Positions 2,008-62,664 of a stretch of 64,000 bases of DNA are shown here, piece after piece. The stretch is from Nitrososphaerota archaeon (GTDB lineage: Archaea; Thermoproteota; EX4484-205; JAAOZP01). The notes under the pieces were generated by a model. It did no database searches, was not told the origin of the DNA, and worked only from the letters and a program-made list of their open reading frames with translations. The stretch spans positions 32,001 to 96,000 of the forward strand of contig JAAOZP010000014.1 in the NCBI GenBank assembly GCA_011605725.1, read 5' to 3'. Each line of letters begins with the position of its first letter. The first letter of the stretch is position 1. Made by a program: the position numbers and the translations under genes.

Positions 2008-2103
2008 CGGGCCCGGCGGGAATTGAACCCGCAACATCTGGGTTAAAAGCCCAGCGCTCTAACCAGGCTGCTCTCCACACATGTGGATTTGAGCTACGGG
2101 CCC
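2008..2103 (-). tRNA. tRNA-Lys(UUU) with 21-nt D-loop intron (15/16; 2068-2088)
   Basis: GGGCCCG acceptor stem, CTGGG-CTTTTAA-CCCAG anticodon arm, GTTCAAT T-loop; GCTC/GAGC helix with 3-nt bulges. Confidence 0.93.
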
Positions 2104-46538: not shown

Positions 46539-46547
46539 CTTTAGAAG

Positions 46548-46562
46548 AAAAAGTTAATATAG
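46548..46562 (+). promoter_or_regulatory. BRE/TATA promoter of the leu leader
   Basis: AAAAAGTTAATATAG; TTAATATAG also precedes the ilv leader. Confidence 0.55.
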
Positions 46563-46594
46563 TAGTGGAGCGGTCTCCGCTGAGGAGGTGTATA

Positions 46595-46675
46595 GTGCAC
46601 ATGGCCAGCAACGCCCAAAGGGGGCGAGACTACCTGCGTTGCAGAGACAGCGACACCTCTATCGGAGTCTGCTGA
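46595..46675 (+). CDS. Putative leu leader peptide, 26 aa (MHMASNAQRGRDYLRCRDSDTSIGVC)
   Basis: AGGAGGTG SD, GTG start, AxRGRD shared with the ilv leader, sole Leu at position 14. Confidence 0.7.
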   Translation: MHMASNAQRGRDYLRCRDSDTSIGVC

Positions 46676-46716
46676 AAAACAATATTGTTTTAAACCTGTT
46701 TTAGGAGGGTTTCGTA

Positions 46717-51601: not shown

Positions 51602-53134
51602 CTAAGGGCATTTTTCAACCGTGGAGAAGGAGAAGCCCTTGACAAGCCTGCTTACAGCGTTTTCCAGAAGCATCCTAGCCTCCGTGTCTTTCTGAAGCAT
51701 CAGGCTAAGCTTTGAGAAACACTCTTTTAAAACGTTCTCCCTGTCTGCGAGCATCATTTTATCAGCCTCGGGAGAGCCTGCGCCTAAGGATACTCGCTTC
51801 GAAGCGACAGCACTCGCGTCAGCCTCTTTCAGTATTTTCATCAGTAGACCGCTAACGTCTCTGCCTAACACGTTCAGGGAAACACTTTTTAAATCCTCCT
51901 CGTTGAGACTATTCATCTTCCTGCCGGTTTTAACGCTGAGCTTAACAATCTCCCCCACCAACCTGTGGGCAAGCCTGAATGGAACCCTGGCTTCCTCAAC
52001 TATTCTTTCAGCAACATCCAAGGCAATAATGTTTGGCTCAGTTAAAGACCTTATTCTCTCACGGTTCTCCTTAAGATTCTCAAGAACAATTCTAACGATT
52101 CTAACTGCTTCCCTGCTTGTTTCAATAGCCTCGATCAACGGGGGCTTGGTTTCCTGAAGATCTCTAACATAGCCGCTGGGCACTGCCTTGCAAACCATCG
52201 AGAGCTGAGCTAGACTTGAGAAAACCCTTCCTGTTCTCGCACGGGTCAGCTCAAGTATGCAAGGATTCTTCTTATGTGGCATCGCGCTCGATGGGAAAGC
52301 CAGCTCGTCTGGAAGCGTGAAGAAACCGTATTCTGAGGAAAGCCAGATTATAAGGTCCTCCATAATCCTGCTCAGGTTAAGCATGAGAATGTTGAGGTTT
52401 GAAACAACCTCCAGCGCGAAGTCTCTTGACGAAACAGCGTCGAACGAGTTCTCCACAACACCGTCGAACCCTAGGAGCCTCGTAGTGAGACTCCTGTCTA
52501 TCTTAAGCGAGGAGCCGACTATAGCAACGCTCCCTAAAGGATTCTGGTTAACCCTTTTAAAGGATTCTGAGAGTCGGTTAAAGTCTCTCAGAAACACGTC
52601 GAAATACCCTAGGAAATAGTGTGAAAGAGGAGCAACCTGAGCCTGTTGCAGATGAGTGTAGAACGGGAAAACTACGTCAAGAGTCTCTCCAGCCTTCTTT
52701 AGAAGAGTTGCCTCAAGCTTAAGCAGCTCTCCCATAATGCTTAAGACTTCTCTCCTCGTCTTAAGCCTCACCGCCGTGACAACCTGATCATTCCTGGAGC
52801 GAGCCGTGTGAACAAGGCCTCCTACCTCCATCCCAGCCTGCTTAACTACATAAGACTCTATGAGTTCATGAACATCCTCGTACTTTTCAAGGTCGAGCTG
52901 ACTCAAACCTTCCTCTCTAAGCCTTTTAAGAGCCTCAAGAATCTGTTTAAGCTGCTCCTCAGTAATATAGCCCTGTTTCATAAGCATGAGGTCGTGCGCA
53001 ACCGTGCATTCAATATCCTCGTTAAATATCCAAGCGTCTTCCCTAATGCTGGACACGTATCTCGTGGCCTCTGAGGAAACCGGTCCAAGCCTGCTCCTAT
53101 ATATGCCTCCGGAAGCATCCTGCTCCATTGACAA
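51602..53134 (-). CDS. argH: Argininosuccinate lyase
   Basis: HTARSRNDQV, YTHLQ.AQ, SSAMPHKKNP, RDLQE. Confidence 0.95.
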   Translation of the reverse strand: MSMEQDASGGIYRSRLGPVSSEATRYVSSIREDAWIFNEDIECTVAHDLMLMKQGYITEEQLKQILEALKRLREEGLSQLDLEKYEDVHELIESYVVKQAGMEVGGLVHTARSRNDQVVTAVRLKTRREVLSIMGELLKLEATLLKKAGETLDVVFPFYTHLQQAQVAPLSHYFLGYFDVFLRDFNRLSESFKRVNQNPLGSVAIVGSSLKIDRSLTTRLLGFDGVVENSFDAVSSRDFALEVVSNLNILMLNLSRIMEDLIIWLSSEYGFFTLPDELAFPSSAMPHKKNPCILELTRARTGRVFSSLAQLSMVCKAVPSGYVRDLQETKPPLIEAIETSREAVRIVRIVLENLKENRERIRSLTEPNIIALDVAERIVEEARVPFRLAHRLVGEIVKLSVKTGRKMNSLNEEDLKSVSLNVLGRDVSGLLMKILKEADASAVASKRVSLGAGSPEADKMMLADRENVLKECFSKLSLMLQKDTEARMLLENAVSRLVKGFSFSTVEKCP

Positions 53135-53218: not shown

Positions 53219-53305
53219 TCAGCATTTTACGGGTTTCCCTAGAGACAAGTGGTGGCGAGCTAAGATTCTACAAGGGTTGAGACGCCTCCGGTAGTCCAGA
53301 AGCAT
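53219..53305 (-). CDS. Putative argH leader peptide, 28 aa (MLLDYRRRLNPCRILARHHLSLGKPVKC)
   Basis: GGAGTGTG SD-like sequence before ATG; tandem CGG AGG CGT codons; 84 nt upstream of argH. Confidence 0.55.
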   Translation of the reverse strand: MLLDYRRRLNPCRILARHHLSLGKPVKC

Positions 53306-53412
53306 GTGAATCACACTCCACGGAAAGCCTTTCCCCCGGTTTTCTACGCGCGCAAAAAGCAGCGGGCAAAACTTAAAAGGCTCAAAAACAAGTATTTCAA
53401 GAGGAACTCGTC

Positions 53413-58728: not shown

Positions 58729-60402
58729 CTACCTCCTTACGATGACTCTGTCAAGCGGGGCAGCCGGGGGAACCATTGGGAAAACATTATCCTCTCTCGC
58801 GACAATCACGTCTAACACAGTTGTCTCATCCTGCTTTAAAGCGGTTTCAAGAGCGTTTTTAAGCTCGCTTATCCTCGTCACTTTAAACCCTTTAGCGCCG
58901 AAACCCTCTGAAACCCTAGCTATGTCAGCTCTGCCCTTCAAATCCACAGCCATATACCTCCTGCCGTAGAAAAGCTCCTGCCACTGTCTAACCATGCCCA
59001 GGAAATAATTGTTAAGAACCAAGACTATGATCGGCAGGTTATAGTCTACTGAAACCGGAAGCTGGTTACAAGTCATGAAGAAGCTACCGTCTCCAGCTAT
59101 GTCGAAAACACGGCTCTCCGGGAAGGCTGCTTTAACCCCGATCGCAGCCGGAAGCCCGAAGCCCATTGTGCCAAGTCCGCCGGAGGATATGAATTGTCTC
59201 GGACGCTTAGCTGTAAAGTGGAGTGAAGCATACATCTGGCACTGGCCTACCTCCGTCGTCACAAAGTCTTCAGCCTTAACATAGTCGTTCAGAACCCTTA
59301 CGGCAGTACTTGGATCAACCGGAACAGCATCGTAATCGTAAAGGAACTCAGATTCCTTCTTGAGCTGTTTAACTCTTTCACCCCACGTAGCAGCCTTGCC
59401 CTTCTTGAAAAGCCTGAGAATCGTTTCGCGAATCCTGATTAAAACCTGCTTAGCGTCACCGGCGACGCCAAGGTCGGGCTTAAGCAGCTTCCCGATTTCA
59501 GACCTATCTATGTCAACATGTATCTTCCTCGCTCCCGGGGCGAAGCCGCTTAACTTACCAGTAGTCCTGTCGCTAAACCTCATGCCTACTGCAAGAATCA
59601 GGTCGCTCTCCTGAACAGCCTTGATCGCGCCTAGCTTCCCATGCATTCCAACCATGCCTAGGGACAACGGATGGTCTTCAGGAATGCTTCCCTTGCCCAT
59701 TAGAGTCGTCGCTACGGGAGCGTTTAGAAGCTCAGCAAGGGCGATAAGCTCGCTGGACGCGCCTGATATTATTACTCCGCCTCCAGCTATGATCACAGGC
59801 CTCTCAGCCTCAACCAGCATCTTTGAGACTGTTAGAATCTCCTCGTCGGAGGGAGAGGGAGGAGTATAAGAGTAGATGTAGAAATCGTCATCAGGCTCGC
59901 CCTCCATCAGCTGAACATCCCTAGGGACGTCGATGTGAACAGGCCCAGGTCTTCCGGATAAGGCTATTTTAAAAGCGTTCTCAAGCGCAGAGTTAAGCTC
60001 GTTTAAGTCTCTAGGTAGAAAGTTCATCTTCGTCAACCCTATCATCATCGAGAAAACATTAGCCTCCTGAAAACCGTCGTAACCTATGAGAGGCGTCGCA
60101 ACCTGGCCGGCTATGCTTAAAACCGGCGAGGAATCCAAGTAGGCGTTGGCAATTCCTGTTGCAAGATTAGTGGCGCCAGGGCCGGATGTGGCGACGACAA
60201 CGCCAATCCTGCCGGTTGCCCTAGCATACCCGTCAGCCATGTGGGCAGCACCCTGCTCATGCCTCGCGAGAATGAACTCTATGTCGCCAGCCTTATAAAG
60301 CTCGTCTAGAAACGGGAGCACAGCCCCACCGGGTACTCCGAAGATGGTTTTAACCCCGTTCTCCCTCAGCTTCTCAACTAGTAGTCTAGACCCTGAAACC
60401 AT
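58729..60402 (-). CDS. ilvB: Acetolactate synthase large subunit
   Basis: FG.PGG, RHEQ, SGGLGTMG, GDGSF, GMVRQWQ; ATG 60402 follows GAGGTG. Confidence 0.96.
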   Translation of the reverse strand: MVSGSRLLVEKLRENGVKTIFGVPGGAVLPFLDELYKAGDIEFILARHEQGAAHMADGYARATGRIGVVVATSGPGATNLATGIANAYLDSSPVLSIAGQVATPLIGYDGFQEANVFSMMIGLTKMNFLPRDLNELNSALENAFKIALSGRPGPVHIDVPRDVQLMEGEPDDDFYIYSYTPPSPSDEEILTVSKMLVEAERPVIIAGGGVIISGASSELIALAELLNAPVATTLMGKGSIPEDHPLSLGMVGMHGKLGAIKAVQESDLILAVGMRFSDRTTGKLSGFAPGARKIHVDIDRSEIGKLLKPDLGVAGDAKQVLIRIRETILRLFKKGKAATWGERVKQLKKESEFLYDYDAVPVDPSTAVRVLNDYVKAEDFVTTEVGQCQMYASLHFTAKRPRQFISSGGLGTMGFGLPAAIGVKAAFPESRVFDIAGDGSFFMTCNQLPVSVDYNLPIIVLVLNNYFLGMVRQWQELFYGRRYMAVDLKGRADIARVSEGFGAKGFKVTRISELKNALETALKQDETTVLDVIVAREDNVFPMVPPAAPLDRVIVRR

Positions 60403-60447
60403 TTGAAACACCTCTTGCAAACGGCTTTTTGAAAACCACTGTTTTCT

Positions 60448-60531
60448 CTAGCGGAGGCTGGGTTTGCAGCGGGACTCCTGCAGTTGGTGGACGGTGTCCC
60501 GCCCCCTTGGAGCGTGAATATTATGGTACAC
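60448..60531 (-). CDS. Putative ilv leader peptide, 27 aa (MYHNIHAPRGRDTVHQLQESRCKPSLR)
   Basis: AGGAGGTG SD, GTG start, AxRGRD at the same positions as in the leu leader, Val at position 14. Confidence 0.7.
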   Translation of the reverse strand: MYHNIHAPRGRDTVHQLQESRCKPSLR

Positions 60532-60596
60532 TCAGCGCACCTCCTAAGCAGTGTGCCCATTGAGAGGCCTATATTAATCTTTCCCCCCTAAGCTGG

Positions 60597-62589: not shown

Positions 62590-62664
62590 GCGGCGCTGGT
62601 CTAACCTGGTTATGACACCAGCCCCCCAAGCTGGGAACTCCGGGTTCAAATCCCGGGCGCCGCA
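62590..62664 (+). tRNA. tRNA-Gly(CCC), with C at position 33
   Basis: CCAGC-CCCCCAA-GCTGG anticodon arm; near-identical to tRNA-Gly(UCC). Confidence 0.92.

Follow-up and report, generated by a model that had tools for sequence, protein, structure and literature searches.

The subject of this study is a leader (60403-60580, minus strand) upstream of the acetolactate synthase gene ilvB, found in a window of 64,000 nucleotides, the whole stretch of DNA analysed here, from contig JAAOZP010000014.1 (positions 32,001 to 96,000) of a Nitrososphaerota archaeon. Our sequence comparisons indicate that this region is almost certainly a conserved and translated leader of a branched-chain amino-acid operon, in which codons cognate to the pathway are embedded. 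More tentatively, the arrangement of its reading frames hints that a ribosome starved at a Val or Leu codon of the leader may shift its frame and in this way reach the beginning of the enzyme gene. A paralogous leader with identical layout (46540-46716, plus strand) precedes leuA-leuC-leuD in the same window. The region read upstream of ilvB was 190 nt long, and upstream regions of ilvB and leuA were taken from 40 relatives; the leader set comprises 58 sequences, 33 of them genomic (17 ilv and 16 leu) and 25 metagenomic, belonging to one Brockarchaeota genus and one other family.

Leader Open Reading Frame and Translation Signals

The open reading frame (ORF) of the ilv leader, which we designate frame 0, has 27 codons (60448-60531, minus strand), from a GTG start at 60531 to a TAG stop at 60450-60448, and its peptide would be MYHNIHAPRGRDTVHQLQESRCKPSLR. 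Six nucleotides ahead of the GTG lies the putative ribosome-binding site of this ORF, the Shine-Dalgarno (SD) sequence AGGAGGTG (SD1; 60538-60545, minus strand), whose GGAGGTG is invariant in 32 of 32 genus-level leaders. At ilvB of relatives, GGAGGTG-N6-ATG shows the same spacing. Eight closely related leu leaders have 12 nt between SD1 and the start, which in them is an ATG two codons further on. The divergent copy from the other family (L024) has no comparable SD1; there, the leader ORF opens with ATG/GTG codons close to the predicted site of transcription initiation. Transcription is expected to start at or just before SD1, since SD1 follows the TATA box by 22-27 nt in most leaders. The putative archaeal promoter of the ilv leader, recognized by the known archaeal consensus, is GGAAAGATTAATATA (60570-60584, minus strand) and combines a purine-rich B recognition element, GGAAAGA, with the TATA box TTAATATA (60577-60570), the latter common to all 33 genomic ilv and leu leaders.

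Frame 0 is open for 20-27 codons in 58 of 58 leaders, genomic and metagenomic together. Codons 3-6 vary freely across the set, yet the distance from the start codon to the conserved core described below is fixed: 24 nt in every leader that starts with GTG, and 18 nt in the eight leu leaders that start with ATG. From the SD sequence, the start codon and the open frame we infer that the leader is translated. Selection on the peptide is another matter. The first-pass annotation had proposed that the peptide is under selection, and a test of coding potential by frame, which it had suggested, does not bear this out: the ratio of nonsynonymous to synonymous change (pN/pS) lies at 0.8-1.2 in all three frames without singling out frame 0, so that selection on the peptide cannot be claimed in this way. 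Residues outside the core drift, while inside it the nucleotides themselves are invariant, third codon positions included (AGG, GGG, GTC, CAA, CTG). The hydrophobic content of the peptide means nothing by itself either, because Val, Leu and Ile average 25% in the genome and the peptide has four such residues in 27, that is, fewer.

Conserved Core and Candidate Sensor Codon

Codons 7-12 of the ilv leader ORF (60496-60513, minus strand) read GCT CCA AGG GGG CGG GAC, giving A-P-R-G-R-D, and contain an SD-like AGGGGG (60507-60502) followed by a rare CGG (60501-60499). The consensus of this core is GC(T/C) NNN AGG GGG CG(G/A) GA(C/T) NNN, or A-x-R-G-R-D-x, directly followed by codon 14, and the string AAGG(G/A)GGCG is invariant in the 33 genomic leaders. 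At codons 7, 11 and 12 all changes are synonymous, apart from one D-to-E replacement; non-synonymous variation occurs at the x positions (codons 8 and 13), and codon 10 changes from GGG to AGG in one species. This lone variant turns the G-run into a perfect SD, AGGAGG, at the cost of a C-G pair in a predicted hairpin (hairpin 1, see below). Arg11 is always encoded by CGA or CGG, codons that rank with the rarest in the genome (1.9 and 3.0 occurrences per 1000), AGG and AGA together accounting for 81% of its Arg codons. The rare Arg codons, together with an SD-like run whose variant disrupts the hairpin, argue for the core being a decoding signal and not just a hairpin arm. A frameshift at the G-run or at the rare CGR codon itself was considered and judged unlikely, since a shift there would respond to Arg-tRNA, an implausible signal for ilv and leu operons. 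A tRNA-Gly(CCC) gene, whose product would read the invariant GGG codon of the core, is located 2 kb from the ilv leader (62590-62664, plus strand).

Codon 14 follows the core and is cognate to the pathway in both leader families. It is GTC (Val; 60490-60492, minus strand) in 17 of 17 ilv leaders and CTG (Leu) in 16 of 16 leu leaders, the metagenomic copies agree, and it always stands 9 nt past AGGGGG. From codon counts we estimate the chance of an accidental Val/Leu correspondence at about 2%, a figure that refers to two families only. The ilv leaders continue past codon 14 as x-CAA-CTG (Q-L), so a possible second sensor is codon 17, CTG (Leu; 60481-60483, minus strand), conserved in 16 of 16 genus-level ilv leaders; the other family's copy has ATT (Ile) at this place. 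The conserved cognate codons amount to one Val and one Leu in ilv leaders and one or two Leu in leu leaders, without runs. Together with the conserved features around it, the Val/Leu correspondence suggests that codon 14 acts as the sensor.

An earlier reading of the window by eye had counted Ile5, Val14, Leu17 and Leu26 as the relevant residues and had proposed a multivalent sensor that includes Ile. All four are indeed present in the 27-codon peptide, and their conservation differs: Val14 (17/17) and Leu17 (16/17, Ile in one) are kept, Ile5 is restricted to the nine closest relatives and Leu26 to the 27-codon forms. Leu26 is the CUC inside a CCUCC sequence complementary to SD sites (the anti-SD, discussed below), and in the 20-codon forms the same CCUCC lies past the stop. 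Since Ile5 is not conserved, sensing of Ile is not supported.

Stop Codons and the Open +1 Frame

The three-phase distribution of stop codons downstream of the core is unexpected of an untranslated RNA or a DNA operator, and thus provides the strongest evidence for ribosomes reading the region in defined frames. Stops were counted from the core to 6 nt ahead of the gene ATG and summed over leaders. The 17 ilv leaders contain 32, 0 and 0 stops in frames 0, +1 and +2, respectively (antisense frames 21, 30 and 16), and the 16 leu leaders 32, 0 and 34 (antisense 35, 38 and 6). The same frame pattern recurs in the 25 metagenomic leaders. Frame 0 has one to four stops, 36-57 nt ahead of the gene; the +1 frame is stop-free past the gene ATG in 30 of 33 leaders and ends 2-6 nt ahead of the assumed start in the other three. 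In the window, the stop-free +1 frame (60378-60491, minus strand) extends from codon 14 across the anti-SD, the SD of ilvB (SD2) and the ilvB ATG to a TAG at 60380-60378. It forms part of a 60-codon ORF (60378-60560, minus strand), which we do not consider a real gene, as the ATG that opens it is not conserved and falls in the interval from the TATA box to the expected start of the transcript.

By dinucleotide shuffling, the chance of an open +1 frame is 0.08-0.49 per sequence. The spacers group into some nine clusters with only 41-66% identity between them, and the joint chance consequently falls to about 1e-3 to 1e-6, depending on how many clusters are counted as independent. In several clusters a +1 stop lies 2-17 nt upstream of the core, bracketing the open frame at its 5' side. 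The 3' end of the frame is likewise confined: it is out of frame with ilvB or leuA and stops between -6 and +23 of the start codon in all but two leaders. In the most divergent copy (L024, with the same DNA as L118), in which ilvB truly starts at the ATG that comes first after GAGGTG-N7, the +1 frame closes with an AUGA that overlaps this ATG, as judged by eye. It ends in UAAUG in two leu leaders (L040 and L152) and in UGAnnnAUG in three ilv leaders (L016, L133 and L149); in most others the end falls at +14 to +23 of the gene, in the metagenomic L148 at +34, and in L011 beyond the scanned stretch. As a weaker point, codons for Val, Leu and Ile are scarce in the +1 frame of ilv leaders: they make up 21 of 257 (8%), as against 61 of 260 (23%) in +2 and a genome average of 25%. 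It is the stop pattern alone that points to a frameshift at codon 14.

The nucleotide-level invariance of the core, third positions included, the indifference of pN/pS to frame 0 and the retention of hairpin 1 would also be expected if the leader were an untranslated RNA element, for example a binding site for a protein or ligand, whose core falls into an open frame by chance. We regard this as unlikely, because SD1 and start are kept at initiation spacing in the 32 genus-level leaders, the frame is open in all 58, and the GTG-to-core distance remains fixed while codons 3-6 vary; the three-phase stops, the scarcity of covariation, the lack of an Rfam match and the sole G-run variant, which breaks the hairpin, tell in the same direction. 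Much less credible still is a DNA operator for a transcription factor common to the ilv and leu promoters. The same conserved block of about 70 bp does lie downstream of two promoters of one regulon, and CGCTCCAAGGGGGCG forms an imperfect palindrome. Archaeal repressors, however, usually bind over the TATA box or the transcription start, and the block is situated about 40-90 bp downstream of the TATA box. Moreover, if the leader were an operator, the DNA motif might be expected to persist with the frame lost; what we find is that the SD, start and open frame are kept and that the stops are frame specific, which makes an operator highly improbable.

Predicted RNA Structure

The first-pass annotation had also described several stems in this leader and had proposed that the RNA fold is under selection. 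The pairings themselves can be traced in the window. Hairpin 1, CGCTCC (60514-60509)/AAG/GGGGCG (60505-60500), at 60500-60514 on the minus strand, is predicted by RNAalifold in both leader families, and relative to its counterpart in the leu leader (CGCCC/GGGGCG; 46613-46629, plus strand) it is retained with U-G for C-G, as had been noted. It is paired in 92-99% of cells of the pair-list count, with 0 compensatory changes. In the minimum-free-energy fold of the window's leader, the G-run of the core pairs with a downstream CCGTCC(A)CC and not in hairpin 1. Two further stems, TGCAG (60482-60478)/CTGCA (60469-60465), at 60465-60482, and GAAAAC (60446-60441)/GTTTTC (60436-60431), at 60431-60446 and past the frame-0 stop, both on the minus strand, are each paired in 72% of cells, the latter being accompanied by a T4 tract. 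They are present as described, and restricted to near relatives, being absent from more distant species.

The anti-SD GCCTCC (60453-60458, minus strand) lies within codons 25-27 of the leader ORF and is complementary, as had been pointed out, both to SD1 (60545-60538) and to SD2 (60415-60409). As CCTCC or CCTCT it is kept in 31 of 33 leaders amid otherwise diverged sequence. Its pairing with SD1 is found in 98-99% of cells, with 0 compensatory changes, and reaches 8 bp in leu leaders; complementarity to SD2 takes the form GCCUC:GAGGU in the window and CACCUCC:GGAGGUG in relatives. RNAalifold assigns it SD2 as a partner in ilv leaders and SD1 in leu leaders, individual folds alternate between both, and the minimum-free-energy fold of the window's leader joins it to SD1.

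Covariation lends little to these structures. RNAalifold predicts one compensatory pair among 28 pairs in ilv leaders and one among 22 in leu leaders, and there are no informative compensatory changes in hairpin 1, in the SD1:anti-SD pairing or in the two further stems. The window's leader folds modestly better than shuffled sequences (z = -1.84). A search of Rfam returned only tRNAs at gathering score in the whole window and nothing relevant on the leader at E values up to 10. Nor does the leader contain a terminator of bacterial type (a hairpin followed by a U-run), and the consensus folds are without an antiterminator/terminator pair. A fold of the bacterial attenuator type is thus not supported, as two of the stems are clade specific, covariation is lacking, and neither a terminator hairpin nor an Rfam match was found.

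These results bear on whether the leader is a multivalent transcription attenuator as known from bacteria, responding to Ile, Val and Leu, in which the position of the ribosome chooses between terminator and antiterminator. A leader ORF with Val and Leu codons ahead of a branched-chain operon is what such a device would require, hairpins are predicted, and a T4-T6 tract precedes SD2 in most leaders, as judged by eye; archaeal RNA polymerase terminates at oligo-T. Intrinsic termination in archaea does not, however, depend on hairpins, and a choice between hairpins would thus have nothing to act on. Furthermore, the cognate codons are single and not in runs, Ile5 is not conserved, and the stems beyond the ORF are clade specific, with no hairpin and U-run, no covariation and no match to an Rfam leader family, so that we judge an attenuator of this type quite improbable. 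A reading akin to a T-box, with GUC or CUG as a tRNA specifier, was likewise set aside, since no conserved UGGN for binding of the tRNA acceptor end was seen by eye in leu leaders and the codon belongs to the reading frame set by a conserved SD and start. The absence of an Rfam match and the single compensatory pair per family speak against a riboswitch or T-box in general.

The main rival to a frameshift, in our judgement still rather unlikely, retains the translated leader and the sensor codon and dispenses with the change of frame. A ribosome stalled at codon 14 would swap the partner of the anti-SD CCUCC among SD1, the AGGGGG of the core and SD2, and in this way open or close the ilvB ribosome-binding site, a translational attenuation of the erm/cat type or of the type of mycobacterial Cys upstream ORFs (uORFs). 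This would explain why the anti-SD, complementary to SD1, core and SD2, is conserved in 31 of 33 leaders, and it fits with consensus pairings to SD2 (ilv) or SD1 (leu, 8 bp) and with individual folds that switch. uORFs with cognate codons acting at this level exist in bacteria (10.1101/834739). Against it, a ribosome stalled at codon 14 leaves the anti-SD, about 30 nt downstream, uncovered, and SD2 would accordingly stay masked under starvation, so that taken simply the model gives the wrong sign of regulation. It also leaves the stop-free +1 frame (and, in ilv leaders, +2 frame) up to the gene start unexplained. In addition, SD2 and the AUG are predicted to be of ordinary accessibility, and compensatory changes are lacking.

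Proposed Mechanism

We favour, without regarding it as established or even probable, an explanation in which the change of frame is the regulatory event: a ribosome starved at the Val or Leu codon would shift and be carried to the start of the enzyme gene. Hungry-codon frameshifting would then possibly be the signal itself, that is, an amino-acid sensor without a hairpin switch. The ilvBNCD mRNA would begin at or just before SD1, which would drive translation of the leader ORF. The core AGG GGG CGR GAY NNN, with its SD-like run and very rare Arg codon, may hold or slow the ribosome with codon 14 in the A site, the placement of AGGGGG relative to codon 14 being close to the initiation spacing of the genome. 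In the ilv leader codon 14 would present Val, with a Leu codon three codons later, and in the leuACD twin Leu (CTG). With plentiful Val-tRNA, the ribosome would keep frame 0 and terminate at one of the one to four stops 36-57 nt ahead of ilvB. With a hungry codon 14, the waiting ribosome would shift; the +1 frame is open in both families, and -1 also in ilv leaders. The shifted ribosome would cross the anti-SD and SD2 on a stop-free track and terminate at or just past the ilvB start codon, having made a trans-frame peptide with the N-terminus MYHNIHAPRGRDT followed by +1 sequence. Starvation would thereby be coupled to expression of ilvB, and candidates for the output are termination-reinitiation at the start codon, unfolding of the mRNA, or an RNA polymerase kept coupled across the T-tract.

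Several observations weigh against this proposal. Codon 13 varies (ACC, CCC, TAC, CAC, AAC, AAT), is not slippery and cannot re-pair in +1. The AGGGGG is 6 nt from the P-site codon and not 3 nt, the optimal SD-to-P-site spacing in Escherichia coli prfB. The +1 frame of most leaders extends 14-23 nt into the coding sequence, a less favourable position for reinitiation, and the leu +1 frame, with 20 Leu among 235 codons, is not poor in Leu. The initiation region of ilvB and leuA (-20 to +3) shows no consistent masking when compared with 150 control genes by partition-function accessibility: its unpaired probability spans the 3rd to the 97th percentile of the controls and most representatives are mid-range, and hence a need for coupling does not emerge from the data and masking of SD2 is not supported. 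The sequences derive from one genus and one other genome, so that the clusters are not fully independent. Finally, hungry-codon frameshifting is an established phenomenon, and SD-stimulated +1 shifting is known from prfB, while no natural use of hungry-codon frameshifting is known (PMC5009743).

Comparison with Known Systems

The leader looks like a case of ribosome-mediated amino-acid sensing that is a member of neither the bacterial attenuator family nor the prfB family. With the enterobacterial ilvBN/ilvGMEDA and leu attenuators it shares a short upstream ORF led by an SD, codons of the pathway's own amino acids and the prospective use of the ribosome as a sensor of tRNA charging. The enterobacterial attenuators, in contrast, have runs of such codons where the archaeal leader has one or at most two, and the archaeal leader is without a terminator/antiterminator with U-run and without an Rfam match. 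It further differs in its archaeal promoter and polymerase, in the invariant RGRD/AGGGGG core and in a second stop-free frame reaching the gene start. Masking of the SD in erm/cat leaders likewise involves an anti-SD in or near the leader ORF that is complementary to the SD of the regulated gene; unlike in erm/cat, the archaeal anti-SD pairs at least equally with the leader's own SD, and no unusual masking of the ilvB start is predicted.

The resemblance to prfB, the release factor 2 gene with its autoregulatory +1 programmed frameshift (reviewed in PMC5009743), begins with an AGGGGG upstream of a slow A-site codon, which in prfB is a stop and in the archaeal leader a sense codon for Val- or Leu-tRNA. 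In either case, the rate of shifting would reflect how much of the factor decoding the A-site codon is available. prfB combines its 3-nt spacing with a slippery codon of CUU type, and the archaeal leader has 6 nt and no such codon; moreover, the +1 frame of prfB encodes the product, whereas that of the archaeal leader only leads to the start of a separate gene. Common to both are a slow A-site codon, an early end of frame 0 and an open +1 frame. Hungry-codon shifts and +1 shifting of the Ty1 type similarly depend on limitation of aminoacyl-tRNA at the A site, with a rare Arg codon as the pause in Ty1; such shifts are known as errors or as a means to produce a fusion protein, no natural starvation-specific use being known (PMC5009743). 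The polycysteine uORF attenuators of mycobacteria are again small uORFs with cognate codons that act by stalling without a classical terminator, and differ in being bacterial and leaderless and in having several consecutive Cys codons; a second-frame feature is mentioned in neither the title nor the abstract of their description (10.1101/834739).

Distribution and Genomic Context

We assign the element to the ilv and leu operons of a single small lineage. Fifteen other species of the genus have the ilv leader, which also occurs, strongly diverged, in a genome from another family (L024); the leu leader was likewise recovered from 15 other species of the genus. In the window's own genome (2.2 Mb, 20 contigs), BLAST and nhmmer searches recovered only the ilv and leu copies. 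A weak match at C16:20914 was taken as a probable chance hit, as the surrounding sequence looks like ordinary coding DNA. When all 26 genomes of the class were searched with a covariance model built on the core, each genome of genus g1 yielded precisely its ilv and leu copies, and the remaining four genera yielded none. Pattern scans, two over species genomes and one over metagenomes, recovered only ilvB and leuA leaders of Brockarchaeota-type metagenome-assembled genomes (MAGs), plus a few chance bacterial matches; the metagenomic scan contributed the 25 additional leaders, all ahead of ilvB or leuA. These searches brought up no third operon, and hence no other amino acid on which the sensor-codon rule could be tried. 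The motif-bearing contigs belong to MAGs of hot springs and vents that carry the label Candidatus Brockarchaeota or Thermoproteota. In two genomes of another family of the same order (L026 and L027; genomes G020 and G018), ilvB directly follows a leuA-like gene, and neither a leader nor an RGRD motif is found there. This arrangement suggests that the origin or the retention of the leader was limited to cases in which ilvB and leuA each come first in a transcription unit of their own.

In the window, ilvB (58729-60402, minus strand; 557 codons) encodes the acetolactate synthase large subunit, with the Pfam domains TPP_enzyme_N/M/C, and is followed in the order ilvB-ilvN-ilvC-ilvD, down to 55562, by genes with matches to ACT_AHAS_ss, KARI_N/C and ILVD_EDD. 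The program-made ORF of ilvB begins at a TTG at 60420, within SD2; the conserved N-terminus MVSGS... and the SD spacing instead place the real start at the ATG at 60402. SD2, AGAGGTG (60409-60415, minus strand), is the conserved ribosome-binding site of ilvB, 6 nt ahead of that ATG; read 5' to 3', the TAG of the leader ORF is followed by a spacer of 45 nt, SD2 and the ilvB ATG.

The 16-20 nt between the TATA box and SD1 (60546-60569, minus strand; 46563-46585, plus strand, in the leu leader) are variable in sequence. In most species this interval forms a dyad, at the same position in L009-L053, examples being GCCCCCGCAGGGGGGC, CCTCATGCATGAGG and AGCGGTCTCCGCT. By the usual distance from TATA box to start the dyad would lie upstream of the transcript, and an RNA hairpin is therefore not expected there; a palindrome of variable sequence is also odd as a protein-binding site.

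Two other sites in the window deserve mention. About 80 nt upstream of an argH gene resembling argininosuccinate lyase (51602-53134), a 31-codon ORF from a GTG, or 28 codons from an ATG (53219-53314, minus strand; MLLDYRRRLNP...), contains three consecutive Arg codons of three kinds (CGG AGG CGT). It is without the RGRD core, and its +1 frame closes soon past the Arg codons, as judged by eye. At 2016-2069 (minus strand), a partial Rfam match to tRNA (35 bits, model positions 9-63), which was not called by ARAGORN, may be an intron-containing, split or decayed tRNA gene.

Significance

Ribosome-mediated control of amino-acid biosynthesis operons is a textbook mechanism of bacteria. A full-text literature search revealed no described archaeal case, and no publication on this leader. 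On the most conservative reading, the ilv and leu operons of Brockarchaeota are co-regulated by a shared cis element, and the initial picture of a multivalent attenuator in the bacterial style is corrected. Beyond this, the leaders provide a concrete and testable archaeal candidate, with two paralogous copies in one genome that each carry a codon of their own pathway at the same position past an invariant decoding signal. Should the two-frame layout represent regulated frameshifting, it would answer a question of the recoding field, namely whether cells exploit hungry-codon frameshifting (PMC5009743). It would then be, and we put this forward as a possibility with somewhat more doubt than confidence, both the first natural regulatory use of such frameshifting and the first ribosome-mediated attenuation described in archaea. 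If true, it would further show that attenuation is workable with a polymerase that does not use terminator hairpins.

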